From assembly GCA_964617825.1 (NCBI GenBank), contig CAZTWL010000006.1, positions 23,315 to 87,314 on the forward strand: a stretch of 64,000 nucleotides of DNA, given 5' to 3'. Below are positions 6,171 to 44,511 of the stretch, in pieces. This stretch comes from an uncultured Verrucomicrobiota bacterium (GTDB lineage Bacteria; Verrucomicrobiota; Kiritimatiellia; JAAZAB01). The notes under the pieces were generated by a model. It made no database searches. It was given only the letters and a program-made list of their open reading frames with translations, and was not told the DNA's origin. Every line of letters starts with the position of its first letter. Position 1 is the first letter of the stretch. Made by a program: the position numbers and the translations under genes.

Positions 6171-6395
6171 TGGCTTTGCCTCCGGACTGTTGATTGCCGT
6201 CTGTTCGAAAATCGCCTTGTTACCAGCAACACCTCGCCTTCCAATCCTCCTTTCCAAAACAGTTCCACCCTTTCCCGCAGGCGAGGAAGATTTTTACGCG
6301 CAGACCCTGCGGTCTTTCAATTTAATAAGATGGATTAATATACGTGACATTCCTGCAATACAAGAAAATACTTTGTTCTTTACCGGCAATGAATT

Positions 6396-9958: not shown

Positions 9959-10075
9959 ATTTTCATTCTTGTGGATGCCTGCAGTTATGTGCGGAATCCA
10001 AGGTTAAGCAACGCGGTTACAAATCAATGTTATGCACTTCCGCCGGCGGCGGATAAAGTCATCATCAATCAGGTC

Positions 10076-10274
10076 CACTGGCGTCCTACAGGGGGGCGCC
10101 TCGGACTGTAGACTGCAGGCCGAAGGCTGTAGGTCGGAATCGAATAAATCCAAGTTGGAAAAACTGGAACTGAGGATTTTGAAGAGCTTTTCATAATCAT
10201 CGCTTTTCTTGGTGTTTTCCTACGGTCTACGGCCCACAGCCCTCAGCCAGAGCATCCTGTGGGATGCTAATGAA
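10076..10274. repeat. MITE-like intergenic repeat, family A (about 200 bp, about 45-bp terminal inverted repeats)
   Basis: It starts with CACTGGCGTCC... and ends with ...CATCCTGTGGGATGCTAATGAA. It is nearly identical, in reverse complement, to copies at 15814-15995 and 24695-24885. Confidence 0.8.
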
Positions 10275-10317
10275 TCAGGTCATAACGTTTTTGGCGCCAA
10301 ACGTTGCCATAAGATTT

Positions 10318-11322
10318 TCAGGCAAGTGTCTTGTAAAACGCCTTCTTGTTCGCTTGGCGCTCTTTTTCCTGGGCGGCATCCAGCAGATAAAGTTGCCATT
10401 CCTCCTGGAACCGGCAGGTTTGGCCGGGGGCCAGGTCGTATACGGGGCTCGTGGGCTCCAGTTCGACCATGAGCATGTGATCTTTGAATTTCGGGTCGCT
10501 GAGCCAAACGCTGACAGGCCAGTTGGCCAGGGGATACACCCCGGGAACAATGCTGTATCGCTTCATGTAAATCAAATTATCCTGGACGTAGGCCATCCAG
10601 CCGTCCGTGCCTTTCATGATGGTTTGGCAGACGGTCCCCAGCGGTTTTACCGTCAGGATGCCATCCGCATATTGAAATTGCTCGGCCGCGGCGGCGCGGC
10701 TCGATCTCGGCGAAGTAAACAATTCGCCGTCCTTCGAGCCGATGAATGCCCAGCCTTCCGGCCATTGCGCATCGGCGGTTACCGGAATGTCCAGGTTGCA
10801 TGGTCCGACTGTCCAGGTCCGATCCCAAATGCTCACTTTGTTTCTATGTTTTGACCGGTTCTGCACGGTTTGGGCAATGACGACCTTGCCGGTAGCGGGA
10901 TCGATCTCAATATCGCGCACAATTTGGAGGCCGGTTGTGGGGCCGACGGGACTGACCGCGGTCAGGTGATTCGGCGATTTGAGCTCCACGGTATATTCGC
11001 CGATCCATAAACATGGTTCCTTGACGCTGATATTTTCGCCGCCTTTTTCGTCCAACAGGTCGAATTGGCTGCCTCCGGGCATGAAAAAGCCCTTGGCGCG
11101 CAAAGTGGCGCCCCACAAGGCCGGATCCTGCCAGAAGATATTACGCCCGATGGGACCATATTCCATGATCCGCGCGCCGACATCTGCCACGACCACGATC
11201 TGCATGGATGGCGTTTGAAAGCAATAAACGTTTGACCAGCCTTTATAATCGATGCGTGTCCAGCCGTTCTGCATGTTTTCTCCAGTGGTTATTGTGTAGT
11301 TGCTTCTGTTTAGTTGTTCCAT
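10318..11322 (-). CDS. hypothetical protein (no recognisable domain)
   Basis: The six-frame ORF is 355 aa. The most likely start is at 11322 (MEQLNRS...), exactly at the terminus of the adjacent repeat. Coding-like codon usage is the only support. Confidence 0.45.
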   Translation of the reverse strand: MEQLNRSNYTITTGENMQNGWTRIDYKGWSNVYCFQTPSMQIVVVADVGARIMEYGPIGRNIFWQDPALWGATLRAKGFFMPGGSQFDLLDEKGGENISVKEPCLWIGEYTVELKSPNHLTAVSPVGPTTGLQIVRDIEIDPATGKVVIAQTVQNRSKHRNKVSIWDRTWTVGPCNLDIPVTADAQWPEGWAFIGSKDGELFTSPRSSRAAAAEQFQYADGILTVKPLGTVCQTIMKGTDGWMAYVQDNLIYMKRYSIVPGVYPLANWPVSVWLSDPKFKDHMLMVELEPTSPVYDLAPGQTCRFQEEWQLYLLDAAQEKERQANKKAFYKTLA

Positions 11323-11503
11323 TGGCGTCCCATAGGGCCGCCGAAGGGCTGAAGACTGCAGGCTGTAGTCCGTAGGTTCGAACACGCAAAATGCAGATCC
11401 ATAAAACCGAAACTATGGTTTTTGCATCTGGCTGATGATTGCCCGTTTTCCTACAGTCCACGGTCCACAGTCTACGTTCTGAGCATCCTATGGGATGCTC
11501 ATG
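11320..11503. repeat. MITE-like intergenic repeat, family B
   Basis: CATTGGCGTCCCATAGGGCCGCC...GAGCATCCTATGGGATGCTCATG. This copy is closely related to those at 37075-37270 and 38941-39128. Its termini are shared with family A. Confidence 0.8.
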
Positions 11504-11738
11504 TTGTTGTCCCTTTAATACCTGAAAATCAGATGAGTTTGTGGATTTCAGAATTCGAAGTCAATTATTATGTGGCCTTCCCGGGATAGGCGGCGGCCTT
11601 TCGGGATGGCGGATGGAGAAACGTGAGATGACATGTTCGTGATGACGAACGTGGCGAGGTGGTTGGACATTGCCGGGGATAAACGTAATACAAAATCCGA
11701 CGCTAAACCCGAAGGAGCCTATTCTGTGTAATCGGCTT

Positions 11739-13595
11739 TCAAAGCGGGATTTTGGGAGAGAAAAATATCCGCCAGTAACGGCCGGAGCGATTCCGGTTAT
11801 ACTCGAACAGACGCCAGACGAACGAAAAGTGCCTGGCATCCGTGGCGCTTGAATACATGAACAACGGCTGGAATTCGAAGTTGGTCGCATCGCCCTGGCG
11901 CTGATACTGAACCAGCCGCCACAAGAGCCGCCAGTCGGTCCCTTGCGCATCGCATTGATTGTATAGCAGGGGAAACAGCAGCTTTTTGTCGTTCCACTGC
12001 CAATAAAGGGGAAAGACGTGAAAATAATCCTGACCCCACCATACCGGGCCGACGCCCTTATTCCCGTCGACATTCCAAGCCAGGGGCAAAATCAGATTGT
12101 TGTTGGTCTTCCAGTGCCAGTAGAGCGGAAACACGTTAAGATAATCCTGGCCCCACCAGACTGGACCAATGCCCCGGTTGCCATGCACCGTCCAGGCCAG
12201 GGGCAGGAAAATGCTATTCTGATTCCAATGCCAGTAGAGCGGGAAGACGTGGCAATAATCCTTACCCCAGCAAACAGGCAAGACCCCTTTGTTATCGTTG
12301 ATGTTCCAAGCCAGGGGGACGAGCAGGCGGTTATCGCCCCATTGCCAATAGAACGGGAAGACATCGAAATAATCGTCGCCCCACCAGACCGGGCCGACCC
12401 CTTTATGATCATTGATGTTCCAGGCCAGGGGCAATAGCAGGCGGTTATCGCCCCACTGCCAGTAGAGCGGGAAGACATCGAAATAATCATCACCCCACCA
12501 GACCGGACCAATGCCCTTGTTATTGTCGATCTTCCAGGCCAGGGGCAATATAAGATGATTGTCGTCCCAGTGCCAGTAAACCGGGAAAATGTCGAAATAA
12601 TCCCGGCCCCACCAGACCGGGCCGATGCCCCGGTTATCGCGCACAGCCCAGGCGGCCGGGAATAAAATCGTATTATTGTTCCAATGCCAATATACCGGGA
12701 ATACATGGAAGTAATTGCGTCCCCACCAAACCGGGCCAACGGCCGCATTCGCATTGACCTTCCAGCCCAAGGGCAAAAGCCACCAATTCTTTCCGTGTTG
12801 CCAGTAGAACGGTACGACATGAAAATAATCTTTTCCCCAGCAGACTGGGCCAATGCCGTAATTTCCGTTGACTGTCCAGGCCAGCGGAGCCAGGATCAGA
12901 TTATTGTCCCAGTGCCAATAAACCGGAAAGATATCGAAGTAATTATCGCCCCAGAAGATGGGGCCGGCAATATTGTTGCCGCCTTCGAGCCATACCAGGG
13001 GTACCACATAAAAGTAGTTTTGGCCCCATAAAACTGGCCCAATGCCTTTATCGCCATTGAAATCCCAGGCCAGGGGCAATAGCAGGCGATTTTGACGCCA
13101 CTGCCAATAAAGGGGAAAAACGTGGAAATAATCCTGACCCCACCATACCGGGCCGACGCCTTGATTGCCGTTAATGTTCCAGGCGGCCGGAATGACCAGC
13201 CAATTTGCATCCCAATGCCAGAATAGCGGCGGCAGGCAGGCGTAATTATTGCCCCAGAAAACCAAACCGACGCCGTACGATGTGCCCACCTTGCCGCCGA
13301 TGGGAATAATTATGTAATTCTCGTTCCAGTGCCAGTAAAGGGGTATGAAGTGGAAATAATTTGTTCCCCAGAAAACGGGAACGATGTTGCCGGAAACCGC
13401 GCCCGTGGCGGTCTTCCGGCAGGCGGCCGCGCTGAATAGTATTTCACGGTCATACGAGCCGTCGGCCTGAACGGAGGAGTAGTAAAGCGGCCAAAGGGGG
13501 ATCGTGGCGGCCTGGTTCTCTGTTGCTGCGCCGGCCATGGCCATGAGACTCAGCCAGGAGGCAACCCAAGCGCAGGCAAAGCGACGTCTTAACAT
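11739..13595 (-). CDS. secreted tryptophan-rich tandem-repeat protein (about 13 copies of a 44-aa repeat GxGPVWWGxDYFxVFPLYWxWxxNxLLLPLAWNxNxNK)
   Basis: The probable start is at 13595 (MLRRRFACAWVASWLSLMAMAGAA, a signal peptide); the ORF extends to 13631. The repeats are near-perfect, with a DNA periodicity of about 132 bp. I do not recognise the family. Confidence 0.6.
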   Translation of the reverse strand: MLRRRFACAWVASWLSLMAMAGAATENQAATIPLWPLYYSSVQADGSYDREILFSAAACRKTATGAVSGNIVPVFWGTNYFHFIPLYWHWNENYIIIPIGGKVGTSYGVGLVFWGNNYACLPPLFWHWDANWLVIPAAWNINGNQGVGPVWWGQDYFHVFPLYWQWRQNRLLLPLAWDFNGDKGIGPVLWGQNYFYVVPLVWLEGGNNIAGPIFWGDNYFDIFPVYWHWDNNLILAPLAWTVNGNYGIGPVCWGKDYFHVVPFYWQHGKNWWLLPLGWKVNANAAVGPVWWGRNYFHVFPVYWHWNNNTILFPAAWAVRDNRGIGPVWWGRDYFDIFPVYWHWDDNHLILPLAWKIDNNKGIGPVWWGDDYFDVFPLYWQWGDNRLLLPLAWNINDHKGVGPVWWGDDYFDVFPFYWQWGDNRLLVPLAWNINDNKGVLPVCWGKDYCHVFPLYWHWNQNSIFLPLAWTVHGNRGIGPVWWGQDYLNVFPLYWHWKTNNNLILPLAWNVDGNKGVGPVWWGQDYFHVFPLYWQWNDKKLLFPLLYNQCDAQGTDWRLLWRLVQYQRQGDATNFEFQPLFMYSSATDARHFSFVWRLFEYNRNRSGRYWRIFFSPKIPL

Positions 13596-13646
13596 TATCT
13601 TGTCCAGTTTGAGCGGAGAATGCGACCGCAATGTGCAATGCGGCGC

Positions 13647-15821
13647 TCAACGTTTGATTGCGGGCTTCTTGGTGACGGTTTTTTGCTGCTCGATCAGGTT
13701 CATATAGGTCCGGTAGCGCAAGACGATCTGGCGCACGTAGTTGATCGGTTCCTCGCCGCGGACGAAGCCGCATTTTGCCCGGCGGGCGTATTGCGGCTTG
13801 GAAAGCAGACGCATGGCGTCCTCCACGTTGCCGAACCAGATATTCGGGTTGCGGCCCATTTGGCGGGCCAGGATGCGCGCATCCAGCACGTGGCCGGCGC
13901 CGGCGTTGTAAGAAGCCAGCGCGAAAAATACGCGGTTGCTGGCATCCAACTCCTGCGGCACGCGGTCCTGCATGACGTTCATGTATTTTACCCCGGCATG
14001 AATGCTGGTGGGCGGGTCCTTCAAATTGCGAAAGCCCATTTCTTTTGCCGTGCTCGGCAAAACCTGCATCAGTCCGCGCGCGCCGGATGGCGAGACCACG
14101 TTCGGATCGAACCGGCTTTCCTGGAACATCTGCGCCACGATCAGGCGCCAGTCGAAATTATACATGTCCGCGAACTTGCGGACCAGCGGGTCATATGGGG
14201 AAATACTGCCATCCGGATAAAGGCGCGCCTGTTCCTGCACGGCTTTCCGGATTTTAGACGGGCTGCGGAAGTAATAGTTATAAGCGATGTTGTAAGCGGT
14301 GCCGCGGTATTCTTTTTTCCAGAAGGCATTGATGGCCTGGAGCAATTGCTTATCCTTGGCGCGGACGACCCAGCCTTCCGGCTGGGGGGTCCCAATGGTC
14401 AGAACCGCCTTAATCCCGTCGAGCCAGCCCAGTGCCAGGGCTAATACTTCGTCATCCACCACCGTCAGGTCGATGGTTCCGTCGGCCACCCATTCGAGCA
14501 TATCGTCAGGTTGGGCGCCGGCCGGCGATGCCCGGCGCTTGACCTTGATGCCCTGGCTTTGCAGGTTGCCCAGCAGGGTCCAGGGATACGAGGAACGCGC
14601 CGCCATGATTTCGCGCCCGGCCAGGTCCTGGATGGTTTTGATGCGGCGCTCGGTCGTGCGGGCGACAACCGTTTCGGCCGCATCATTATACGGCACCGAA
14701 AATTCGACGCCCTGGCTCCGGCGTTCGTCGGTAACGGTCAGGAAGGCGGCAATGAAGTCGCCGTGTCCGGCTAAAAGCATGGGGATCAAAGCATCGTAAT
14801 CGGGCGCCACAACCACTTCCAGTTGCAGGTTGTTTTGTTTGGCGAACCGGCTGGCCATTTCGTATTCGAATCCGCGAAGTTCGCCTTTCCAGAGAAAATA
14901 GGTGGCGGCCGTATTGACCGTGAGCATGCGCAGAAGCTTGCGTTTCTTGATTTGCGGCCAGTCCTCCCGGTAGGCGGCGGCCGAGCGCGCGGCTATCGGC
15001 GTTTGCTTTAGATAACTGTTGAGCGAGGCCAGCAACTGCTTATTCCCCGGGCGCGCACCCCACACCAGGTTGCGGTCAATCCCCAGATCGAGCACGCGTT
15101 TGAAGTCGGAGCGATATTGCCGCACAATGTTCAGCGTAATGCTGTCGGTCAGGACCAGATCAAGCTTGCCGGCAGCGAGCCGGTCCAGCATGGCATCGTC
15201 CGAAAGCGTTTCCGGCAGAACCTGCGTACGGATTTCCGGGTAACGTCGATGCAATGCCTGGGCGGTTTCGCATTGGGCCGTATCCTTCTGCACCGCGAGC
15301 GTATGCCCTTTTAAGTCGGCAATCTGCTTCAGCGCGGGGGAACTGAGGCGCCCGGCAATAATTTCACGATAAGAAAAAAGCGGGGCTGAAAAGGCGATCT
15401 TCTTTTTCAGGGTCTCCGTGGGGGTCATGTAGCTGGCGATCAGGTCGCCTTTGCCGGCCAGCAGGGCGGCGGTCAGGTCGGCGCGGGTTTCAACGAAGAC
15501 CGCTGCCGGGCGTACGCCGATGGCGGCGCAGAATCCGATGGCCAGGTCCACTTCCCGATTGGGCGGGTCTCCGGCGCGGGGGAGATATTGCTCCGCCTGT
15601 TGTAAAACGAGAAACCGCAGGCATCCGCGTTTCTGGATGGCGGCCAGGTCGCCGGTTTCGATGTAGTCCGTGGCCGGGGCCGCGCTCTCCTCGGCGGATG
15701 GCGTGGTTTCCGGTATCGACGCGGCCGGCTCAGGCGCCTCCGGTTGCTTGCCGCAGCCGGTTGCCAGGAGCAGGAGCGCAACACCAAGCGCGATGGTTTT
15801 GTTGATCCAGTTCATTAGCAT
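13647..15821 (-). CDS. mltF: membrane-bound lytic murein transglycosylase F-like (2x SBP_bac_3 domains + C-terminal SLT domain), lipoprotein
   Basis: Signal peptide with lipobox (LLLLATGCGK). Two periplasmic solute-binding-like domains are present. A C-terminal lytic transglycosylase motif (ESRFDPNVVSPSGARGLMQV, AYNAG) is present. The start codon lies inside a repeat terminus. Confidence 0.8.
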   Translation of the reverse strand: MLMNWINKTIALGVALLLLATGCGKQPEAPEPAASIPETTPSAEESAAPATDYIETGDLAAIQKRGCLRFLVLQQAEQYLPRAGDPPNREVDLAIGFCAAIGVRPAAVFVETRADLTAALLAGKGDLIASYMTPTETLKKKIAFSAPLFSYREIIAGRLSSPALKQIADLKGHTLAVQKDTAQCETAQALHRRYPEIRTQVLPETLSDDAMLDRLAAGKLDLVLTDSITLNIVRQYRSDFKRVLDLGIDRNLVWGARPGNKQLLASLNSYLKQTPIAARSAAAYREDWPQIKKRKLLRMLTVNTAATYFLWKGELRGFEYEMASRFAKQNNLQLEVVVAPDYDALIPMLLAGHGDFIAAFLTVTDERRSQGVEFSVPYNDAAETVVARTTERRIKTIQDLAGREIMAARSSYPWTLLGNLQSQGIKVKRRASPAGAQPDDMLEWVADGTIDLTVVDDEVLALALGWLDGIKAVLTIGTPQPEGWVVRAKDKQLLQAINAFWKKEYRGTAYNIAYNYYFRSPSKIRKAVQEQARLYPDGSISPYDPLVRKFADMYNFDWRLIVAQMFQESRFDPNVVSPSGARGLMQVLPSTAKEMGFRNLKDPPTSIHAGVKYMNVMQDRVPQELDASNRVFFALASYNAGAGHVLDARILARQMGRNPNIWFGNVEDAMRLLSKPQYARRAKCGFVRGEEPINYVRQIVLRYRTYMNLIEQQKTVTKKPAIKR

Positions 15822-15995
15822 CCCACAGGATGGTCTGGCTGAGGGCTATGGGCCGTAGGAAAATACCAAGAAAAGCGATGATTATGCAAAGCCCTTCAAA
15901 ATCCTCAGTTCCGGTTTTTCCAACTTGGATTTATTCGCTTCCGACCTACAGTCTTTGGCCTGCAGTCCGAGGCGTCCCTGTGGGACGCCAGTGGA
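15814..15995. repeat. MITE-like intergenic repeat, family A (reverse orientation)
   Basis: CATTAGCATCCCACAGGATGGTCTGGCTGAGGGCT...GGCGTCCCTGTGGGACGCCAGTGG. This is the reverse complement of the copy at 10076-10274. Confidence 0.8.
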
Positions 15996-16205
15996 TCCAG
16001 TTCATTTGTCCTGAGCACGTTGCGCGTATGCTAATCACCCGCTAATTTGTAGATAAGTTTATGGTGAATGGCAAGCACGGTTTGCAGCGCCGCATGCTAT
16101 GAGGAACACAGGAGCGGATTGGACGCCAAACCTTTGCCGCCACTGGTCAATCAGGAGACTAAGTTAACGGTATCTTTTTCTGTAATCCGCGATAACCGTA
16201 ATTCC

Positions 16206-16916
16206 TTATCGGCCTAGTCTTCCCAAAATGAAGGGGATGGCGGATTCGACCCGCAAAATCCGTGCGCCGACTCGAACCGGCCGGCAACCGGCTTCAACCA
16301 TCTTGGTCACCTCGTAATTGATAAATCCGCCCTCCGGCCCGACCACGAGCGTCAGCGGCTGCGTCACGGCCTGCGGACAATCGTTTACGGCGCCGGGATG
16401 CGCAACGAGCGCCAAGGCGCCTTGGGCAAGTGCGGGCAGTTCGTCCTCGACGAACGGCTTGAAAAGCGGGCGCAAAAACACGTCCGGCAAAATAGTGTCG
16501 CGCGCCTGTTCCAGTCCGAGAAGCAGGGCTTCGCGGATGGCGTCCGGTTGCAACAGCGGGCTTTGCCAGTAGCTTTTTTCCACCCGGAACGCGTTGATCA
16601 AATACAGGCGTTTCACGCCCAGGCTGGCGATCGAAAGCAGCACCCGCTTGATGACCTTGGGCCGCGGCAGGGCCAGGACCAGCGTGATTGCCAAAGGCGC
16701 CGGCGGCGCCTCGTTCAAGACAACATCCATTTCCACGGCCGCGGCAGTCGCGGCGGTAACCCGCCCTTTGCCGATCGCGCCGCCGAGCCGCCCCACGGTC
16801 AATTTGTCGCCGACGGCCGGCCGCTGAACCTCGCAAATATGTTTCCGCCGGCGCCCCGTCAGCCGCACGGCGTTGCTGGAAATAAAATCGCCGTCATTCA
16901 GGAGAATCAGGTTCAT
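16206..16916 (-). CDS. rsmE: 16S rRNA (uracil1498-N3)-methyltransferase RsmE
   Basis: An N-terminal PUA-like region and a SPOUT methyltransferase C-terminus (LVVGPEGGF) are present. The 236-aa length fits RsmE. Confidence 0.75.
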   Translation of the reverse strand: MNLILLNDGDFISSNAVRLTGRRRKHICEVQRPAVGDKLTVGRLGGAIGKGRVTAATAAAVEMDVVLNEAPPAPLAITLVLALPRPKVIKRVLLSIASLGVKRLYLINAFRVEKSYWQSPLLQPDAIREALLLGLEQARDTILPDVFLRPLFKPFVEDELPALAQGALALVAHPGAVNDCPQAVTQPLTLVVGPEGGFINYEVTKMVEAGCRPVRVGARILRVESAIPFILGRLGR

Positions 16917-16982
16917 CGTCTTGACTTCCTGCCTTGGCCCGGCATCATCAAAGGCCGGCTTTGTGAATTTACAACATCGTGA

Positions 16983-17744: not shown

Positions 17745-17825
17745 ATAAACATTTATCCTTCCGTAAATAACGTGCGCCTGTTGGCGCCAATCTGCCCGTG
17801 ACCCGCTGTGAAAATGGCGGCGCGC

Positions 17826-19569: not shown

Positions 19570-19610
19570 ATAATCATACGTCCATAACGAAACGGAAACC
19601 AAAATATTTT

Positions 19611-19730
19611 GCCCGCGAAACACGCGAAAGGAACGCGAATCTGATTAATTTGAATTAGGCGGCAGAAGAAAATAAACTTTAGCTTTTTTAATCCTTATCT
19701 TTTTAGCGTCCATTCGCGTGTTTCGCGGGC
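19611..19730. repeat. perfect 18-bp inverted repeat (GCCCGCGAAACACGCGAA / TTCGCGTGTTTCGCGGGC) flanking an 84-bp AT-rich spacer
   Basis: Seen directly in the sequence, in the intergenic space between the permease gene and the STAS gene. It could form a long hairpin. Confidence 0.5.
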
Positions 19731-19736
19731 ACACAA

Positions 19737-20990: not shown

Positions 20991-21000
20991 ATGTCTTCCG

Positions 21001-23994: not shown

Positions 23995-24025
23995 ACTTAA
24001 TTGACGCCCCTGGTTGCCTGCATTG

Positions 24026-24649: not shown

Positions 24650-24694
24650 GCCGTCATCCTACCGAATCGGGCGGAAATATTCATTAAATATTTC

Positions 24695-25057
24695 CACTGG
24701 CGTCCCACAGGATGGTCTGGCTGAGGGCTGTGGGCCGTAGACCGTGGGAAAACACCAGGAAAAGCGATGATTATGAAAAGCCCTTCAAAATCCTCAGTTC
24801 CGTTTTTTCCAACTTTGATTTATTCGATGCCGACCTACAGCCTACGGCCTACAGTCTGCAGTCCGAGGCGTCCCATAGGGACGCCGAGACTGTGGGCATT
24901 TGGGCCGTAGGCTGTAGGTCGGAAATAATAATACACATTGGCAAAAAACCGGAACTCAAGTTTATGGGAACATGAGAAACGTTTTCGCTTTTTCCGCGAT
25001 TTTACCTATGGTCTACAGTCTTCAGCCTACAGCCCGAGCATCCTGTGGGACGCCAAT
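24695..25057. repeat. tandem pair of MITE-like repeats (family A copy 24695-24885 + degenerate copy 24886-25057)
   Basis: CACTGGCGTCCCACAGGATGGTCTGGCTGAGGGCTGTGGGCCGTAGACC...GGCGTCCCATAGGGACGCC is followed by a second, diverged unit ending ...GAGCATCCTGTGGGACGCCAATCAA. Confidence 0.75.
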
Positions 25058-26988
25058 CAAATATTTCCATGCATGGGAGAACGGATCGAATAAGCTTTCG
25101 GTTTGCAGAAATGGTTGGGCGGCCGCATGGAATTGATGGCCAGCCACCTTGCTTTTTCAGCGTTAACCAGGACCATCTCGCCGGAAACCAGTTTCTGGTC
25201 GACGATCTGGAATGCTTCGTTCAAAAATAAAGCCCGGACCCGCGCCTCGTTGCAGCGTAACAGGCCGACATCGAGAACCGGCGGCAGCGTCAGGCGTGTT
25301 TTGAACCGATCGAGCCGGACGCTGTCGACGAGGTAGGCGTTATTAGTAATGCCGCACAGGCCGACCTGGTTGTTTAAGACGATTTCGACGCGCATGTCCG
25401 GCTTAACAATGTCTTCCGGAATGGGTATTTCCAGCGAGTCTTCCCAATGGTTCATTCCCCGGCAAAGCAGGGAACGGCCCTGGACGAGAATTTCGATCTC
25501 GCCGTCAATGCCGTTGAACAGGAGCGCGAGCCGGCGCCCCGCAGCGCGGTTTATTTTAACCCTGGTGCGGTAATAAAAAGTTCCCTGGAAGTCCTTGGGA
25601 GCGATTTGCTGGATTTGCAGGTTGGAAGCCGGGAAAACTTTTTTGAATTTTTTGTCATTTGCCCCGCGTATTTCCCAGTCGCCTAGCTCGCGGCCGTAAA
25701 GCAAACGCAGGCCGGCCCGTCCCGGATTGCCGAACTTGAAGGTCAAATCATTAACGCCGCCCTTTTTCAGGAGCGGCAGCACGTCCATGTCCAGGCCTGA
25801 AAAAGCCGTGATATCCTTGGAGACATTGTTGATGGCCAGCATGGTCCGGAAAGAATTTCCCAGTTTGATGGCCAGGGTCCGGCCGAAGGGGCGCAGATCA
25901 TAAGCCGTTTCCCGGCAACCGCAGCGGGCAAACCGGCAAAAAACCTTGCGGTCGAGGGTATGCGGTTTCAAGGGCACCCCGCCGGCCAGGGCGCTGATTT
26001 CCAGGCCGGGGTTGCCGCTATCATCCGCCGGCGGCACGAAGATTGTGCGCGGTGCGCCGGGCGGCAGGCAATAGGCGGAAGCTGCGCGGGGTCCTAAGAT
26101 AAAAGTTCGGCCGCCCGCATCGAACGTCAGGATGGCGCGCGCAATGTTCCGGAATATCCCGCAGCGCGGTATGTTCGGAATGGCGGCATAGGCTTCGCCG
26201 TCCAGGATTATTTTGGCGCGGCCATATTTTTCAAGCAGCGTCAGGCCGTAATAAGGGATTTTACCGAGAGGCAGAAGCTTGCCATCCAGCAAATTCGAAT
26301 GGGCGTAAATATATTTCAGGGCGTCGCACAGCGGCTGGGCGCCGGTGAAATAGCCCCGCCAGAAGGCAACGGTGGCGCCTTTCTTCAAGGCGGCCAGGAG
26401 GGCCTGCTCGCTGAAGACATCCAGGGCCGCAAAAGTCCTGGCTTTGCCGATATCTTCCGTCAGGTGCGCATCCGAATTGCCCAGGGCGGCAATGGCCAAT
26501 CCTTTTTTCAGGCAGCGATTGATATAGTCGCGGCCGAGCTGCGGCGCGCTGGAAAGGAAATTGTAGGCTTCGGCGCTGACGGCGCTTGTCCCGCCGGCCT
26601 GGAAATAGGCCTGATCCGTGGCATGCGCCTGCGAAATAAAAACATCGTTCCGGCGATTCAATGCGAGGACCTGCGCGCAGTCTTTCCCTTTTAATTCGTA
26701 ATTGGCGCCGATGATCAGCACGTGATTTTTACGGGAATCGGTGAATTCCTGGCCGGTCAGGATTGGAATGGGGCTCGGGCCCGCCAGCCGCGCTTGTTCC
26801 GCTCCCTGCCGGGAGTTATGGTCGGTGACCGCGCAGGCATCCAGCCTGGCGCCGCCCAGCGCGCATAACAAGTCTTCCGGCTTGGTCAGCCCGTCGCTGA
26901 CGGTCGTATGAATATGAAAATCCGCGGCAATCAGGTGTTTGGCAAACAGCAGCGCAAATATTTTTTTCATGAACAAGACCGTATCCAT
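25057..26988 (-). CDS. secreted PHP-domain metallohydrolase (CehA/McbA-like)
   Basis: The likely start is at 26970 or 26988 (MKKIFALLFAKHLIAADFHIHTTVSDG), i.e. a signal peptide followed by the PHP HxH motif, with DHN later. The ORF extends to 27321. Confidence 0.55.
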   Translation of the reverse strand: MDTVLFMKKIFALLFAKHLIAADFHIHTTVSDGLTKPEDLLCALGGARLDACAVTDHNSRQGAEQARLAGPSPIPILTGQEFTDSRKNHVLIIGANYELKGKDCAQVLALNRRNDVFISQAHATDQAYFQAGGTSAVSAEAYNFLSSAPQLGRDYINRCLKKGLAIAALGNSDAHLTEDIGKARTFAALDVFSEQALLAALKKGATVAFWRGYFTGAQPLCDALKYIYAHSNLLDGKLLPLGKIPYYGLTLLEKYGRAKIILDGEAYAAIPNIPRCGIFRNIARAILTFDAGGRTFILGPRAASAYCLPPGAPRTIFVPPADDSGNPGLEISALAGGVPLKPHTLDRKVFCRFARCGCRETAYDLRPFGRTLAIKLGNSFRTMLAINNVSKDITAFSGLDMDVLPLLKKGGVNDLTFKFGNPGRAGLRLLYGRELGDWEIRGANDKKFKKVFPASNLQIQQIAPKDFQGTFYYRTRVKINRAAGRRLALLFNGIDGEIEILVQGRSLLCRGMNHWEDSLEIPIPEDIVKPDMRVEIVLNNQVGLCGITNNAYLVDSVRLDRFKTRLTLPPVLDVGLLRCNEARVRALFLNEAFQIVDQKLVSGEMVLVNAEKARWLAINSMRPPNHFCKPKAYSIRSPMHGNI

Positions 26989-27360
26989 CAGGCCGGATTT
27001 TCCGCAGCCGCCGATCCAGATTTGCGGCCAGCAGGTGTCCGGCAATATGGATACGAAGGAAGCGGGCCGCGCGGCCTGTAACGCTTGCGGCAGCTGTCGC
27101 CAGTCAAGGTCGGATTTGATCCGGCCGATCCGGAAGGCGGCTGCTTGGCGGTTGCCGGAATTTATTTTCACCGGCGCCTGGAAAAAGTCCGCGAGCTGGC
27201 GGGCCAGCCGGACGCAGGCGGGCGCCGCATCCTCGAGCGAGATGCAGCGGTGCTTGACCGGAAAATGCTTCAGGATGTTTTGCGAGGGTAGAAATCGGAC
27301 ATACATATATGGCTCGTCCATGCTTTCCGCTCCGGCGCGGTCCGGCTCCGCGCGCCGGCA

Positions 27361-29487: not shown

Positions 29488-29810
29488 TTTAATGTTCCTT
29501 GACATGCGATTCCGGGCGAGTACCTTGTTGCAAAGAATGTCGGCAATGACCGTAATGAAACAGTTTTTGCGGTGGTTGTCCAATGCTTTATGCCATCGAC
29601 AAAACAGGCCTGAAAATAGTGGCCGGGGCGGGGGCATCCCGGCTCCAAGTATAAGTCTCCCCGCCTGGGGGCCTGACTTTAGCAAACGGCATTGCCGGGT
29701 TTTCAAGACGTTCTTGCCATATTTCATTCTTCAGCCTACAGTTTCGGTGTTCTTTGGGACGTCAATTCCGTTGGCGCGGTAACGACAAAACATAGAAAGG
29801 TGTAAAGCAT

Positions 29811-30827: not shown

Positions 30828-31001
30828 AAATTGCGGCGCGCCGGAACCGCTCCGCAGCAATCATGCCGGCCTGAACCTCGTCGTCATCATTATGATGTCT
30901 CCAGAGCAAAGCAGACTGCGCATCAAAAGATGGCTCTGCTCTATGAAGGTAAAAGAGGATAGTGTGATATCTGGTCAAACAACAGAAAGCCAGGGGATAT
31001 C

Positions 31002-32999: not shown

Positions 33000-33015
33000 T
33001 AAAAAAGGAAGGAAA

Positions 33016-33600
33016 ATGACAAAGCGATTGGCATCTGCTGCCGTGGGGCTGGCATTTGTATCTCTCGTGTGTTCAGCATCGGCGGGCTTGGCGGCGAATT
33101 CGAAGAACGACGTCAAAAACAGCGACGCTGCGGCCGCATTCCAGCCGAAAATCATCCAAGTCAAGGACGGTGTCAAATTCTTTCAAGATGGCGATTCCAT
33201 TGCCATTAACGAAGTCAGAGCGACATCACCCGAGCCGAAAACCGGTGACAAAGTGATTGTGACGGGGAGCTATGTTCTTTCGAGCCGTCTGGAAGCAAAG
33301 CTTTCTCTTTTTGTGACCGACGCAACAGGTTCCGGCAAAAGCAATATTCTGCCCGAACAGATCTTTCGCATCTCAAAAGGGCAGGGAACTTTTGAGCTTT
33401 CCACCACGCTGGAATACGAGGGCTATCTGCACGTTACCTTCTACTCCGTTCCTGATGGAAAGCCATTTGGTGGATCGTATTTCGGCACAGCCAAACAGAT
33501 GGAAGAAATTCAGCTCTGGGACTTAAAAAGTTGGTACACAGCAAATTTGGGAACATGTGGTGCAGACCAGGAATCGAAGACTTTGGGAAAGCCGGAGTAA
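33016..33600 (+). CDS. hypothetical secreted protein
   Basis: Signal peptide (MTKRLASAAVGLAFVSLVCSASA). No recognisable domain. Confidence 0.45.
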   Translation: MTKRLASAAVGLAFVSLVCSASAGLAANSKNDVKNSDAAAAFQPKIIQVKDGVKFFQDGDSIAINEVRATSPEPKTGDKVIVTGSYVLSSRLEAKLSLFVTDATGSGKSNILPEQIFRISKGQGTFELSTTLEYEGYLHVTFYSVPDGKPFGGSYFGTAKQMEEIQLWDLKSWYTANLGTCGADQESKTLGKPE

Positions 33601-33704
33601 CTTGATCTTAAATGCATGAGAGTAAAAGAGGGAAAATGGCATCAGTTAAAACATATTCCCAATATTTTTGCGCATGGTCAGGACGTTGGTCAATAACGAG
33701 TAAT

Positions 33705-34382
33705 ATGAAAACAATCAACCTTGGATTGTGCTGCCTGTTGCTTGTCTGCGGCATGGGATGCCGGACCGCCGCGCCTATCCGCCCCGCACCCGACAAAGCC
33801 TATGCAATCCGCGCGGTTTTCATTAATGCACCGTCAACCTTGCTCGAGGAACTGGGTTTGGCATGGATGCGCGACTCCTCGAAAGCGGCCTCGACCGTAG
33901 AATACGAGGAGGCGCTTGAAAAGCTCGGCGCCTCCCGTAAAGCGCGCACCACCGAGTTCCCCGTGGTGTATATTGACCCGGGGGAACATGCCAAAATCGA
34001 TAATCAAAGCCCGGTCAAATATCCGACGGCGTATACTGTGGACGGCAAACCGGCGAATTACATGACGCGCGGAGTCGGCCGCCTGATAGAGATCGACTTG
34101 AAGACGGTGACCAACGGTATCGCCCAGCTGGCCTGTCACATAGAGGATGTTGATGAGCCGGTCTGGACCTCCTATACCTACAAAATAGGCACATCCTCGC
34201 GTAAGCTTAAGTTGCCGAGTTTCCGGGTCCGTTCCCTGACTTCCGATTTGTCCCTGCCGCTGAATGGCTGGAAGATTGTGGGCGGCATCGCGACAACCTC
34301 GAAGGATGGCGAGAAGCGCAATCTGATCACCTGCATCCAGATGCAGGCAACCGCGAAAGTCCCGCCGGCGGCGGCCCATTAG
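33705..34382 (+). CDS. hypothetical secreted/lipoprotein
   Basis: Internal start MKTINLGLCCLLLVCGMGC (signal peptide). The six-frame ORF begins at 33612. Confidence 0.4.
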   Translation: MKTINLGLCCLLLVCGMGCRTAAPIRPAPDKAYAIRAVFINAPSTLLEELGLAWMRDSSKAASTVEYEEALEKLGASRKARTTEFPVVYIDPGEHAKIDNQSPVKYPTAYTVDGKPANYMTRGVGRLIEIDLKTVTNGIAQLACHIEDVDEPVWTSYTYKIGTSSRKLKLPSFRVRSLTSDLSLPLNGWKIVGGIATTSKDGEKRNLITCIQMQATAKVPPAAAH

Positions 34383-34521
34383 CCGGCAACTTGCCAATGC
34401 GAACGGCCCTTTTCACGATGCGCCGCAAGCCGGGTTGATTGACGGATACAGGCGGCTTTGCTTGCGGAGCGCTAGCGTGGCCGTCGCTTTTTTTAACCTA
34501 TAATTAAAAGGGAACCTGCGC

Positions 34522-35721
34522 ATGAAAAGCCATCGTTTCGCAGTTCAAGCTGCCGCCCTCCTGACGGCCACCGGCGTTGCCGGGGCATCACCCAGCGATA
34601 AGGTCGTTGACTCCATGGCCCTTGCTCTCGGCGCCATGAAGGCCAACTGGCAGCCGCGGGAAGCTGCCGCCTTCTCCGCTGCCGAACGCTTCATGCGCGG
34701 CGGCACACTCTGGGTGGCGGGCTCGATCCCGCGGTTCGACGCCGAATGGAGCGGCCGCGCCGGCGGCATCATGCCGGTCTCCGCGCTGAAATCGCCAGAC
34801 AGCCTGCGCGCCGGCGATGTGCTTGTCTATGGTTGTCTGGCGAGTTCCGCCGTGCCCGACGCGGCGCTTCTGGCCAAGGCGCGCGAGCGCAAGGCCCTGG
34901 TGATTGCATTCGGATCGGCGGCGCAGGCCGCCGGGTTGTGCCCGGCGTCGGTCGACCATTTCCTGGCAGTCGATATCCCCGCCGGAACGCCGCTGGCGGA
35001 GCCGGTCGCCGCCTCGGCTTGCCTGGCGCAGCTCTGGGCCTTCTCGGCCGACCTGGTCGGAGCTTGCACGCGCGCCGGCAAGATGCCGGCCATGTGGCAG
35101 AGCGTCATGGTCCCCGGCGCTCGCGAACGCAATGCGCGTTACCGCACTTTGCGGTTCCACGAAGATTGCGCCGTACCGCCCCAGGGGCCGGGCGCGCTGG
35201 GAAACCGTTATCTTGATGCGCTGACGCAGGCCGTGGGCGAACTCCGCAAAGAGACCGGGAAACTCCAGGCCGCCGGCCAAGTCATCCGCGAAGCGACTGG
35301 CGCGGGTCGCAAGATCTTCCATGCCAATTGCGGTCATTATGAACCGGCGCGTCTGCTGTCCCCGGCGTTTCCCATACCGCTTATAGTGCTTGGGGCCAAG
35401 GCGCCCGAGGCCGAACTGCGCGAGAAGGCCGTGGCCGGCGATGCGCTCCTCTGCATCTGGTACACGGAGTTGCCCTCCGCTTTGCTCGCTACGGCTAGGG
35501 AAAAGGGCGTCGCCTCGATCTGCTGCGCGGCCGGCAATCCGCCGCAACCGCATGCCCTGCGCCTGGTCGATGTCTTTGTGGATCCGCATTGGGTCTTTGG
35601 CGATGCGGTGGTGGATCTGCCCGGCTACGATATCCGCATCCTGCCACCTTCCGGGGTGCTCAATTCTCTCATTTTTAACGCAGTGCTCGCTGAAGCTCAG
35701 GCCAAGCCGGCCGCCCCCTGA
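34522..35721 (+). CDS. hypothetical protein with N-terminal signal peptide
   Basis: 399-aa ORF, Ala-rich. No confident domain. Confidence 0.4.
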   Translation: MKSHRFAVQAAALLTATGVAGASPSDKVVDSMALALGAMKANWQPREAAAFSAAERFMRGGTLWVAGSIPRFDAEWSGRAGGIMPVSALKSPDSLRAGDVLVYGCLASSAVPDAALLAKARERKALVIAFGSAAQAAGLCPASVDHFLAVDIPAGTPLAEPVAASACLAQLWAFSADLVGACTRAGKMPAMWQSVMVPGARERNARYRTLRFHEDCAVPPQGPGALGNRYLDALTQAVGELRKETGKLQAAGQVIREATGAGRKIFHANCGHYEPARLLSPAFPIPLIVLGAKAPEAELREKAVAGDALLCIWYTELPSALLATAREKGVASICCAAGNPPQPHALRLVDVFVDPHWVFGDAVVDLPGYDIRILPPSGVLNSLIFNAVLAEAQAKPAAP

Positions 35722-35741
35722 TCGTGCCGGCGCCTGTTTGA

Positions 35742-36965
35742 CTAGGGATGCTGCGGCGCCGGGGTGCCTGTTGTCCGGGGTCGCTGGCGAACCAGGAGCA
35801 GGCCGGCCGCGGCGAGGGCGGCGAAGGCCGCGCCGACGAGGAAGGTGGCGGATGGTCCGATGACGGTCCAAAGCGCGCCGGCAATCGCGCTGGCCAGCAG
35901 GAGCGCGACCCCGCTCACCAGGTTGAATACGCCGAAGGCGGTTCCGCGCAATTCGTCCGGCGCAGCGCCCGCAACCAGCTTGGCAAGCAGCCCCTGGGTG
36001 AATGCCATGTGCAAGCCCCAGAGTCCCGCGCCGGCGAACGTCAGCAGGGGCGAGCGGGCGGCGGCCAGCAGCGCATCGGCGGCAATCAGCATCATGAGCC
36101 CCGCGACCAGCAGTGTCCGCGGCGGCAGGCGATCGGCAGCCGCGCCCGCCGGGTAGGCGCAAGCCGCATAGACCACGTTCATCACGATCATGATCAAGGG
36201 GACGAAGCCGATGGCCAGGCCGACATTTTGAGCGCGCAGGATCAGGAATGCCTCGCTGAAGCGGGCGAGGGTGAAGACCGCGCCGAGGGCCACGATAAGC
36301 CAGTAGCGGCCTGACAGGCGCCGGGCGTCGGCGAAGGCCAGGGGCTTGTGCGTCCCGGCGGATGGCGCGTCATCGGGCTCGCGCACGCCGAAGACGATCA
36401 GGGCGACACAGATGAACGCGGGTATGACCGCAATCCACAGCACCGTCCGGATATTGTTTGCCAGCAGGGCCATGAACACCACGGCGAGCAGCGGACCGGC
36501 GAATGCGCCGATCGAGTCGAGCGCCTGTCGCAGGCCATAGGCCGCGCCGCGCATTTCCGGCGGCACGATGTCGGCTACCAGCGCATCGCGCGGCGCGCCG
36601 CGGATGCCCTTGCCGATGCGATCGATGAACCGCGCGGCAAACACCCAGCCGATGGATGACGCCAGCGGAAAGACAGGCTTGGTGAGGGCGGCAAGCCCGT
36701 AGCCCAGAAGAATGAGGCCCTTGCGCTTGCGGAAAAAGTCGCTGATCGCTCCGGAAAAAGCCTTGCTGATCGCGGCGGCGGCTTCGGCAATGCCTTCGAT
36801 CAAGCCGATCGTGACCACGGATGCGCCCAGGATGCTCGCCATCATGATCGGCAGGAGACTGTGGACCAGCTCCGAGGACATGTCCATGAAAAGCGACACG
36901 AAACCAAGCGCCCAGACGCCGCCCGGCAGCGCCCTGCGGCGGATGACAGAAGGTGGTTGTTTCAT
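35742..36965 (-). CDS. MFS transporter
   Basis: Twelve TM-like hydrophobic segments. A GxxxDRxGKG-like MFS motif (FIDRIGKGIRG) is present. Confidence 0.8.
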   Translation of the reverse strand: MKQPPSVIRRRALPGGVWALGFVSLFMDMSSELVHSLLPIMMASILGASVVTIGLIEGIAEAAAAISKAFSGAISDFFRKRKGLILLGYGLAALTKPVFPLASSIGWVFAARFIDRIGKGIRGAPRDALVADIVPPEMRGAAYGLRQALDSIGAFAGPLLAVVFMALLANNIRTVLWIAVIPAFICVALIVFGVREPDDAPSAGTHKPLAFADARRLSGRYWLIVALGAVFTLARFSEAFLILRAQNVGLAIGFVPLIMIVMNVVYAACAYPAGAAADRLPPRTLLVAGLMMLIAADALLAAARSPLLTFAGAGLWGLHMAFTQGLLAKLVAGAAPDELRGTAFGVFNLVSGVALLLASAIAGALWTVIGPSATFLVGAAFAALAAAGLLLVRQRPRTTGTPAPQHP

Positions 36966-37074
36966 GGCGGTAATCTATCGGAAAGCACCGGGATCGGCAA
37001 GGCCGGACGCCATATTGAGAAACACCTGCCGGCCGAGCGATGAAGTTTCACGGTTAGCAACAACCAAGGGGAAT

Positions 37075-37270
37075 CACTGGCGTCCCATAGGGCCGCCGAG
37101 GGCTGAAGGCTGTAGGCTGTAGTTCGTAGGTTGGAACAGGCAAAATGCAGATACACAAAACCGGAACTATGGTTTTTGCATCTGGCTGATTATTGCTCGT
37201 TTTTCGCCGGTTTTCCTACAGTCCACGGTCCACAGTCTATGGTCTGAGCATCCTGCGGGATGCTAATGAA
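37075..37270. repeat. MITE-like intergenic repeat, family B
   Basis: CACTGGCGTCCCATAGGGCCGCCGAGGGCTGAAGGCTGTAGG...GAGCATCCTGCGGGATGCTAATGAA. Confidence 0.8.
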
Positions 37271-37376
37271 AGGGGATCGTTTTTAACAAGCCGATCGGGG
37301 CATTTCGGATTGGTCTTGACAAAATATGCTCTGTATATCATTATGACTACAGTTTCACAATAAGAAATCTATCCAA

Positions 37377-38174
37377 ATGATTAAAGTGCTTAAAAAGGTG
37401 GACGCCATCTTGGGGTTTGTGGCTGCCAACAAGGACAAGGCGACGCTTGTGGAGCTGAGTCGCCAGCTTAAAATCCACAAGGCGACTTTGTCGCATATCC
37501 TGCAGACCCTGAGCGCGCTTGGCTATATCGATAAGAACATTGCCAAATGCTATTCGATCGGCCCCAGGGTAGTCGATCTGGCGGAGCCTTATCGGCGGCA
37601 GACGGTCCTCCAGGAAGTTGCCGCCGAGTATGCCCGCGCTTTGGCCGGCGAGCTGCGCGAATCGATCTCGGTCAGCATCCTGCATGACGGCGTTCGCTAC
37701 CGGATTGCCCGCGCCTCCGTCAACCGGAGCATTACCGTGGAATCACCCGAGGAAGCGCGCGGCTCGCTGTACGATGCCGCCACCGGGCGCCTGTTGATGG
37801 CGTATCTGGATCGGGATGCTCTGCGCCTGGCGCTGGAAAAGAACGGGTTTCCCGGCAAGCGCTGGAACGGGATGGAGCGCAGCGAAGCGCTGAACAAACA
37901 GCTGGCCGGGATCCGCCGCCTGGGATTGGCGTTCTGGCGTGCCGACGACGGACAGGTTGAAGCGGTGGCCGCGCCGGTTTTCGGTCCGGACAAAAAAGTC
38001 TGGGCGGCGATTGGCGTGGGCGTGCCGGCTTTCCGTTTCCGCGCGGCGGAACGCCGCAGGATCATCGGCGCCTTGAAGGCTGCCTGTGAACAGATGAGCT
38101 TTAATCTGACCCTGCGTTGCAGCGCGGCCGGTGGCGGCAAACCAAACAATGGAAAGGATGATGCCGATGAGTGA
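37377..38174 (+). CDS. IclR-family transcriptional regulator
   Basis: N-terminal wHTH and C-terminal IclR effector domain pattern. The 265-aa length fits the family. Confidence 0.75.
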   Translation: MIKVLKKVDAILGFVAANKDKATLVELSRQLKIHKATLSHILQTLSALGYIDKNIAKCYSIGPRVVDLAEPYRRQTVLQEVAAEYARALAGELRESISVSILHDGVRYRIARASVNRSITVESPEEARGSLYDAATGRLLMAYLDRDALRLALEKNGFPGKRWNGMERSEALNKQLAGIRRLGLAFWRADDGQVEAVAAPVFGPDKKVWAAIGVGVPAFRFRAAERRRIIGALKAACEQMSFNLTLRCSAAGGGKPNNGKDDADE

Positions 38175-38925
38175 ACTTATCAAAGAGTACACCGCTCGAA
38201 TTAACGGTCTTATCGCAACCATCGCGGAGCAGGAAAGTCAAAACATGCTGCTGGCGGCGGAATTGTTGTCCGACAAGGTGCTCGAAGGCCGCCTGATCAA
38301 TATTTTTGGCGCCGGCGGCCATTCCGCCATTGCCGCGATGGAAATCTTCTGGCGTGCCGGCGGCCTGGCCCAGGTTAACGCCATGTTCCCGTCTGGAACC
38401 AATATCGTTTCGGCCTGTCCGACCACGGCTAAGATTACCGGGTTGGCGCCGTACATCCTTAACTTTTACGATGTGAACAAGGACGATGTGCTGATCCTGG
38501 TAAACTTTTACGGGCTGAATATTATTTCGGTTGACGTTGCCCTGGAAGCGAAAGCGCGCGGCGTCAAGCTGATCACGGTCAATGCCCACCAATTTGCCCG
38601 GCAGGTTCCGGCCGATTTCGTCTGGCGGCACCCGAGCAAGAAAAATATAAACGACTGCGCCGATATCGCCATCGACAATCATGTTCCTTATCCCGATGCG
38701 TTGCTCGAAGTCGACGGCATCGAGGAACGGATTGCGCCCTCGGCCACGACGTTGACCTGTTTTGCGCTTAACTGCGTCATGGCCGAAACCATTCGCCTGA
38801 TCAAGGAGAAAGGCGGCAAGCCGGAGATCTGGGTCAGCAACAACATTCCCGGTTGCGATGAGCACAACAAACCGATTCATGACAAATATCGCCATCGGAT
38901 CCATCACCTGTATCCGGTCTGGTAA
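38167..38925 (+). CDS. SIS (sugar isomerase)-domain protein (SIS_2/UPF0309-like)
   Basis: Likely start MSELIKEY. It is a Rossmann-like protein with a GAGGHSA motif. The ORF extends to 38131. Confidence 0.5.
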   Translation: MSELIKEYTARINGLIATIAEQESQNMLLAAELLSDKVLEGRLINIFGAGGHSAIAAMEIFWRAGGLAQVNAMFPSGTNIVSACPTTAKITGLAPYILNFYDVNKDDVLILVNFYGLNIISVDVALEAKARGVKLITVNAHQFARQVPADFVWRHPSKKNINDCADIAIDNHVPYPDALLEVDGIEERIAPSATTLTCFALNCVMAETIRLIKEKGGKPEIWVSNNIPGCDEHNKPIHDKYRHRIHHLYPVW

Positions 38926-38940
38926 GCCATTAAAAGGAAG

Positions 38941-39128
38941 CATTAGCATCCCCCAGGATGCTCAGAACGTAGGCGATGGACCGTGGACTGTAGGAAAACG
39001 GGCAAGAAACGAGCAATGATCAGCCAGATGTAAAAACCATAGTTCCGGTTTTGTGTATTTGCATTTTGCCTGTTCGAACCTACGGACGACAGTCTTCAAC
39101 CCTCGGCGGCCCTATGGGACGCCAATGA
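38941..39128. repeat. MITE-like intergenic repeat, family B (reverse orientation)
   Basis: CATTAGCATCCCCCAGGATGCTCAGAACGTAGG...GGCGGCCCTATGGGACGCCAATGAA. It is inverted relative to 37075-37270, so the two copies flank the iclR and SIS genes. Confidence 0.8.
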
Positions 39129-39141
39129 AAAGGAAGCGAAT

Positions 39142-44477: not shown

Positions 44478-44511
44478 ACATGACCTCGATCATGGGAATG
44501 GGACGGACGTA

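Follow-up and report, generated by a model that had tools for sequence, protein, structure and literature searches.

A probable family of miniature inverted-repeat transposable elements with 9-bp target duplications in an uncultured Kiritimatiellia bacterium

Repeat units and their anatomy

The stretch analysed here (the window) is 64,000 nucleotides of DNA from an uncultured Verrucomicrobiota bacterium of the Kiritimatiellia (assembly GCA_964617825.1, contig CAZTWL010000006.1, positions 23,315 to 87,314), and between 10 and 39 kb it carries seven units of a 181-197 bp repeat at six sites, as delineated by repeat detection, by aligning the seven sequences and by an nhmmer profile. Run over the whole 64-kb window, the profile matches exactly these seven units and no further ones. 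The 17-mer at the terminus (CAYTRGCRTCCCAYAGG, up to two mismatches) occurs 12 times in the window against 0.06 expected occurrences, and chance is therefore excluded for the repeats. We consider it very probable that they are copies of a non-coding, non-autonomous family of transposable elements of the miniature inverted-repeat type (MITEs) of 181-197 bp.

The units fall into two subfamilies and one divergent unit. Subfamily A comprises c1 (10076-10272, + strand, 197 bp; nhmmer E 1.7e-59), c3 (15813-15993, - strand, 181 bp; E 3.8e-52) and c4a, with mutual identities of 90-94%; subfamily B comprises c2 (11320-11503, +, 184 bp; E 1.7e-51), c5 (37075-37268, +, 194 bp; E 2.9e-59) and c6 (38941-39127, -, 187 bp; E 8.3e-53), with mutual identities of 90-91%. 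Identity between A and B is 61-70%, and the divergent unit, c4b, is 61-66% identical to every other unit. These values agree with the two subfamilies proposed in the initial annotation, whose copy coordinates also hold to within 1-2 nt. The fourth site is a head-to-head dimer of 364 bp (24695-25058; repeat detection, alignment and nhmmer) made of c4a (24695-24885, -) and c4b (24867-25058, +): the two overlap in a 19-nt palindrome, GGCGTCCCATAGGGACGCC, at 24867-24885, where two "left" ends are fused; the two "right" ends point outward, and the outer arms are complementary at 45/60 positions. A possible eighth copy, a decayed solo right-end fragment at 29725-29766 (+), is 74% identical to the right end of c4b, a weak candidate that falls below nhmmer significance.

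The elements end in 5'-CAYTGG...CTAATG-3', and their extremities form an imperfect terminal inverted repeat (TIR) of ~17 nt, 12-14 of the 17 terminal nucleotides being complementary in every copy. Inside it, over the next ~40 nt, CTGTAGG-like heptamers form loosely inverted arrays, whose complementarity is ~60-65% even when gaps are allowed; the annotated TIR length of 45 bp is thus too generous, the clear repeat being limited to the outer ~17 nt. Each terminus is itself palindromic (GCGTCCC-nnn-GGGACGC on the left, GCATCC-nnnn-GGATGC on the right), and where one end has G and the other A, the partner arm has C or T to match (42 G..C, 7 A..T and 1 hybrid). In a 17-sequence alignment, 90% of the terminal-palindrome cells pair and a single pair changes on both sides; this one covarying position may weakly indicate selection for palindromy. 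The heptamer arrays of both arms also co-vary across genomes (CTGTAGG/CCTACAG versus CTGAAGG/CCTTCAG), and the termini are conserved across genomes, the terminus being invariant in copies from other metagenome-assembled genomes (MAGs).

Conservation peaks at these DNA termini and not in the core, which differs between subfamilies; a central block, AAAACCGGAACT, is common to both and kept. Two interpretations of the centre were discarded: the central motif is not a sigma-54 promoter, judging by eye from a GG...GC spacing of 13 and not 10, and a central AAAACCG...CGGTTTT mini-hairpin is not maintained in subfamily A. The elements have a GC content of ~51% versus 57% for the window. They contain no transposase-sized open reading frame (ORF), the longest Met-initiated fragment being 14-54 aa per unit and 87 aa in the dimer, and no transposase gene was seen among the window proteins. 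With units of 181-197 bp and a dimer of 364 bp, the family lies below the limit of ~500-600 bp for prokaryotic MITEs (PMC10969869; PMC6382973). Its predicted RNA folds (minimum free energies of -65.2 and -61.6 kcal/mol) are stabler than those of shuffled sequences (z -3.4 and -2.8); stable folding is usual for MITEs (PMC10969869). Rfam has no match within any copy at the gathering threshold or at E<=1.

Target duplications and insertions at gene edges

Target-site duplications (TSDs) were looked for and found, with a length of 9 bp: among 15 full-length copies from the window and four MAGs, 12 have a perfect 9-bp TSD, two match at 7/9 and one has none. In the window, with all element ends set by the profile, perfect pairs flank c1 (AATCAGGTC, 10067-10075 and 10273-10281), c3 (GATCCAGTT on the + strand, 15804-15812 and 15994-16002) and c6 (AAAAGGAAG, 38932-38940 and 39128-39136), and c4 has a single perfect pair around the whole dimer (AAATATTTC, 24686-24694 and 25059-25067); the TSDs of c2 (TAGTTGTTC / TTGTTGTCC) and c5 (AAGGGGAAT / AAAGGGGAT) are degraded to 7/9. 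The chance of a perfect 9/9 TSD is ~4e-6 to 2e-5 per element. A 100-bp mini-element in locus L017 also has a perfect 9-bp TSD. The 9-bp duplications settle the class of mechanism: cut-and-paste or copy-in, by an enzyme that cuts with a 9-bp stagger.

A target logo built from the flanks of 46 distinct element ends shows A at -12 (23/46), T at -11 (32/46, p 4e-6), G at -10 (22/46, p 2e-7), A at -9 (26/46), A or T at -2 (41/46) and T at -1 (28/46), with p 1e-9 for the TG dinucleotide at -11/-10. The TSDs themselves have 28% GC versus 57% for the genome. A target consensus of ATG/AW(N5)WT/CAT, AT-rich and roughly palindromic, is thereby shown statistically, and together with purifying selection it would explain why copies hug gene boundaries.

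The initial annotation had all copies exactly at gene boundaries, which is true of c3, c4 and c6; for c1, c2 and c5 the closest start or stop is 46-236 nt away. The first, c1, is 46 nt 3' of a DUF4380-like stop (10318) and 118 nt 5' of a GFO/IDH/MocA start (9958); c2 is 46 nt 5' of 11274, where the DUF4380-like gene is annotated to start, and 236 nt 3' of the stop (11739) of a repeat protein; and c5 occupies the divergent region from an MFS transporter start (36965, -) to the iclR start (37377, +; Pfam). The repeat protein (11739-13631, -) has 630 aa with ~12 tandem 114-nt (38-aa) repeats and no convincing Pfam match.

At the third site, c3 is inserted directly 3' of the original ATG of an mltF-like lipoprotein gene. 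A scan of metagenomes with the MltF protein found seven orthologous loci (76-85% identity). Two of them, L130 and L126, have an empty site in which ...ACAAATGAACTGGATAAATAAAACC... runs uninterrupted where the window has c3 and its TSD: they read ...GGGACAA ATG AAC TGG ATA AAT AAA ACC..., and in the window 190 nt, made up of c3 and one copy of the TSD, are inserted exactly after ATG AAC TGG ATC, for a reconstructed empty site of GACAAATGAACTGGATCAACAAAACC. Ortholog comparison and translation identify the terminal ATG of c3 (15813-15815, -) as the present mltF start codon. This ATG restores MNWINKTIALGVALLLLATGC, a lipoprotein signal peptide, and the ORF is intact, with 82% identity to orthologs over 717 aa. 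Since no other Met precedes the lipobox of this signal peptide (ortholog N-termini are MNWINKT or MTWINKT), mltF translation must depend on the MITE-derived start. The claim that the repeat supplies the mltF ATG is therefore right as to origin and wrong as to position: the restoring codon is 15815-15813, and the ATG first proposed (15821-15819) lies two codons upstream of it, also in frame.

Upstream of c3, the orphaned original ATG (16005-16003) and a TSD copy now open a 19-codon upstream ORF (uORF) at 15946-16005 (-, by translation), whose product, MNWIHWRPTGTPRTAGQRL, terminates inside c3. A promoter-like block upstream of mltF, TTGCCA-17-TACAAA, is conserved with L130 and L126. As a separate observation, the uORF could couple or attenuate mltF translation. 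A second case of start-codon replacement is found in locus L129, where a 5'-truncated copy lies between a STAS-domain gene and a BPD_transp_2 (branched-chain amino acid) permease gene; the element ATG again serves as the permease start, giving MSLLLGS versus MNLLLGS in relatives.

Other insertions altered different edge signals. The dimer c4 struck the stop codon of a PHP-domain gene (ORF 25057-27321, -; Pfam PHP/PHP_C), which was TAA before insertion and is now a rebuilt TGA (25057-25059, -) composed of the TSD's T and the element's terminal GA (2 nt from the element, 1 nt from the TSD). The stop reads TGA because the last base of c4 is C instead of the canonical G, a non-canonical base seen only in c4, and we infer that selection fixed this change. 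At c6, inserted within a 20-nt spacer between the SIS stop (38925) and a Peptidase_S9/esterase start (39142), the TSD AAAAGGAAG is the ribosome-binding site (RBS) of the downstream peptidase gene, duplicated, and the gene therefore keeps its RBS. The ATG that c2 was thought to donate to the hypothetical gene at 11322 is not required: the public 318-aa protein starts at 11274, a start with GGAG 5 nt upstream, and homolog N-termini do not align to the extension up to 11320-11322. Outward ORFs from 60 element ends are mostly short. Start-codon donation was accordingly rejected as a general property of the family: only c3 and L129 are real cases, donation by c2 being possible but unnecessary.

Distribution, past mobility and the search for a transposase

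A scan of genome collections with CAYTGGCGTCCCAYAGG returned at least 115 stretches. About half of those listed are coincidences: coding DNA of many phyla, a tRNA from gammaproteobacteria and, in Opitutaceae, the beginning of a yebC-like gene. Among the matches listed, all those that extend into the element come from MAGs of Verrucomicrobiota, Kiritimatiellia or the Planctomycetes-Verrucomicrobia-Chlamydiae (PVC) group only. JBDRJR01 has at least 19 pattern-bearing copies, the most of any MAG among the matches listed, about half of them at contig ends, and CAZOZF01, JBAXJV01, CAYQNY01, CAZTAJ01, JBBQNS01, JBAZEM01 and JBIKMI01 are further MAGs with the family in the same set. The repeats are thus not peculiar to one locus, a point raised at the outset: related copies exist in at least eight other MAGs. 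Short-read contigs of the source sample (Logan assembly, SRR8925806) end inside copies. The window belongs to a 127-kb NCBI contig. For the HemW protein that it encodes, identity to MAG proteins from Kiritimatiellae/Kiritimatiellia is 78-80%, which makes the host an uncultured bacterium of Kiritimatiellia type.

Presence and absence at orthologous sites show past mobility: the c3 site is empty in relatives, and the L129 site is filled there with no copy at the orthologous site in the window (19624-19736) or in L124. The locus L124 (21.7 kb), syntenic with the window over ~20 kb, has zero copies, and ~78 kb from four other relatives has none. At one orthologous intergenic position, two species-level MAGs both retain a solo left end (L089:3879-3949 and L101:2849-2906); it has mutated in one of them and stayed intact in the other, and it represents an old insertion that was inherited vertically and is decaying. 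The patchy distribution in Kiritimatiellia/Verrucomicrobiota fits lineage-specific bursts followed by decay. Candidate empty sites for c1 and c2 were set aside: the DUF4380 homolog loci (63% identity) are not syntenic, and the syntenic L124 and L131 have other genes between GFO and mltF, so this region is variable and uninformative for c1 and c2. The 630-aa repeat gene and the DUF4380-like gene are both absent from L124 and L131.

Several results weigh against a non-autonomous transposon. Two of the six sites in the window have degraded TSDs. The search for an autonomous element that has the same ends drew a blank in the window and, among the matches listed, in the ~135 loci: beside 12 solo or atypical termini there are housekeeping genes only (TruA, RtcB, fucosidase and others); where two termini are separated by 0.4-7 kb, they are MITE pairs or the yebC coincidence only; and an all-vs-all blastp for multi-copy ORFs among the fetched loci returned syntenic orthologs only. 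The viral contigs scanned gave 2 chance matches in coding DNA, and plasmids searched by blastn gave no match. Short-read MAGs seldom assemble insertion sequence (IS) copies. Accordingly, both the family of the transposase and any activity today are unproven. As a lead and not a test, 5'-CA ends with an 8-10 bp TSD would fit IS4 (IS4Sa group) or ISAs1-type elements; a 9-bp TSD alone would also fit IS903-group IS5, IS256, IS1 and ISLre2, all of these families producing TSDs of 8-10 bp (ISfinder). The 5'-CA ends and the 9-bp TSD are therefore only compatible with several IS families.

Three further sequences resemble the termini. An IS66 transposase C-terminus in L090:1700-2240, 110 nt from a terminus-like 17-mer, was rejected as a parent: it has its own GTAAGCG end, unrelated to the MITE. 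A different repeat, in MAG ELA573, shares only the outer 17 nt of the terminus (CACTGGCGTCCCATAGG) and continues with GAGACAAGCCGATCTTGATAACAGG...; its three copies (L006:3413-3466, L030:4339-4577 and L072:1-52) are all at contig ends, as a longer repeat would be, and it may be a relative or a parent-type element. Finally, the reverse complement of the terminus 17-mer corresponds to the first codons (MGRQWLHAKR) of a conserved yebC-like gene in L009, L029, L034, L038, L048, L061, L063, L076, L107 and L112 (Opitutaceae and other Verrucomicrobiota), an overlap that we judge to be a coincidence amplified by gene conservation.

The window has other repeats and features of its own. A likely restriction/defence island at 44365-54758, with no MITE copies, encodes an SNF2/PLD helicase-nuclease (1176 aa), an Eco57I/MmeI-type methylase (1108 aa) and a DUF2779 protein. 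Tandem 108-nt (36-aa) repeats lie inside an ORF at 56963-57643, and near-identical 78-nt upstream blocks are found at 55869-55946 and 57751-57828. Direct repeats of ~80 nt, 87-91% identical and 1.57 kb apart (61580-61657 and 63153-63237), lie around a PHP_C-like gene (61827-63236). A 916-aa RCC1/FG-GAP repeat protein is encoded at 3507-6257 (-), and its internal repeats appear as DNA repeat families D5 and D6.

Interpretation and comparison with known systems

The idea of a non-autonomous transposable element, put forward in the initial annotation, is borne out by the TSDs, the conserved termini and the copies beyond the locus; its description as active goes too far, since only past mobility is seen and no transposase was found. 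Mobilisation would occur in trans, by a DDE-type transposase recognising the ~17-nt termini (5'-CAYTRGCRTCCCAYAGG) and making 9-bp staggered cuts. This enzyme would prefer ATG/AW(N5)WT/CAT, and since the genome is 57% GC and its spacers are short, such sites would concentrate at starts, stops and ribosome-binding sites; purifying selection would then retain only insertions that leave genes intact. Self-repair, for which c3 is the demonstrated case, may contribute: as the element ends in ...ATG, an insertion just after a start codon would regenerate the start. The inverted copies once thought to bracket gene cassettes do not form such units: c1, c2, c5 and c6 each have their own TSD, c1 and c2 are direct, and only c5 and c6 are inverted. 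We rejected a composite transposon, in which one TSD would frame the pair and the inner ends would have none, given separate TSDs and different outer flanks (AATCAGGTC versus TTGTTGTCC, and AAGGGGAAT versus AAAAGGAAG). A gene flanked by two direct copies recurs in L104, with separate TSDs again.

A bolder proposal, which we think rather unlikely, is that the element is a "self-repairing" start-codon hopper, a mobile translational-control module rather than tolerated junk. Its transposase would prefer ATG/A-rich 9-mers, and the outward terminal ATG (GTG at the other end) would regenerate the start, so that the first codons of genes could be colonised without killing the genes; each such insertion would leave the native promoter separated from the coding sequence by a uORF and a 180-nt hairpin. 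Two independent cases (mltF and the L129 permease) and the statistically strong ATG/A target logo support this proposal.

Could the repeats instead regulate genes, as a lineage-specific cassette that the host retains because it works as a promoter, a terminator or a hairpin stabilising mRNA? Copies do lie in 5' regions and operon spacers, their folds are stable, the central AAAACCGGAACT is conserved across subfamilies, mltF must be translated from a MITE-derived ATG, and Correia, MITEAba12 and similar MITEs carry promoters (PMC10969869; PMC6382973). We nevertheless hold this improbable. Sigma-70-type promoters and intrinsic terminators are not in excess, the lone terminator-like match being on the non-transcribed strand; the promoter scan used the sigma-70 consensus and PVC promoters may differ, which makes it a weak test. 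Moreover, copies occur in both orientations relative to transcription, the same genes do without them in syntenic relatives, and perfect TSDs together with decaying remnants fit selfish spread. The promoter/terminator cassette that the initial annotation offered as its second option is not upheld by these observations.

REPIN-like elements, that is, pairs of repetitive extragenic palindrome (REP) hairpins moved by a REP-associated tyrosine transposase (RAYT, an HUH tyrosine transposase), come to mind given the short palindrome at each terminus, the co-varying arms and the GTAG-containing heptamers, and REPs are reported from the PVC group (PMC3733652). REP/REPIN transposition, however, leaves no target duplication, and 12 of 15 copies here have a perfect 9-bp TSD, which excludes movement of the REPIN/RAYT type; there is also no RAYT/IS200-like gene in the window or beside the solo termini, and, instead of two hairpins of 20-40 nt that abut, each element has a unique core within its 180-200 bp. 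We therefore give this alternative very little credence. Even less probable is a family of structured small-RNA genes repeated by chance: the predicted folds are stable and small RNAs do arise from MITEs in Coxiella (PMC10969869), but Rfam has no match, the copies take both orientations relative to their neighbours, conservation is highest at the termini and not in the core, and the TSDs would be left unexplained. A local segmental duplication restricted to the locus can be dismissed, because although all seven units lie within 29 kb and none in the other 35 kb of the window, the sequences flanking them are unrelated, every copy comes with a TSD of its own and related copies occur in at least eight other MAGs.

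Taking the repeats as a MITE family has practical consequences: (i), the family breaks short-read assemblies of Kiritimatiellia/Verrucomicrobiota MAGs and creates spurious ORF extensions, and it has shifted genuine starts and stops, which gene callers should take into account; (ii), c3 is a clean natural case of a MITE replacing a start codon base-for-base, with an ortholog-verified empty site; (iii), the defined 15-bp target consensus could identify the transposase; (iv), presence or absence of copies provides strain-typing markers in a poorly studied phylum.

Among known systems, MITEAba12 of Acinetobacter (parent ISAba12; PMC6382973) is likewise non-coding, with short imperfect TIRs, a 9-bp TSD, AT-rich targets and a patchy distribution across its family, and its terminal start codons were proposed to permit fusion with neighbouring genes (PMC6382973). 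It differs in being 113 bp long and 78% AT, with 16-bp TIRs of unrelated sequence and a known parent IS, whereas the Kiritimatiellia element has 181-197 bp, ~51% GC, palindromic termini with heptamer arrays, a PVC host and no parent found. QMITE2 of Coxiella burnetii has a very similar architecture, with 7-9 bp direct repeats and 23-29 bp TIRs (PMC10969869, Fig. 2 legend), around a core of 113-145 bp with a stable hairpin transcript; its sequence and host are unrelated to those of the Kiritimatiellia element (PMC10969869). The abundant Correia elements (CREE) of Neisseria, 100-155 bp with TIRs, lie immediately upstream of genes or inside operons as the Kiritimatiellia element does, and can be co-transcribed and fold into hairpins. 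They duplicate TA, have a 26-bp TIR of their own sequence, contain defined promoters as well as an IHF site, and are RNase III substrates (general background and PMC10969869). In the Kiritimatiellia element the TSD is 9 bp, the termini are unrelated and no promoter or IHF site was detected. REP/REPIN sequences (PMC3733652) are likewise intergenic, have short terminal palindromes rich in G+C and form head-to-head dimers (compare c4), but their lack of a TSD and their RAYT dependence do not fit. Rickettsia palindromic elements (RPE; PMC10969869) also make insertions compatible with the host reading frame, but they insert inside ORFs and add peptide segments, whereas the Kiritimatiellia element swaps an edge start or stop codon and adds no residues. 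By architecture, MITEAba12 and QMITE2 are the closest. Our literature search found no paper describing MITEs in Kiritimatiellota, and the family is apparently an undescribed representative of the well-known MITE class rather than a new kind of system, of which only the start-codon replacement and the target logo exceed routine interest.

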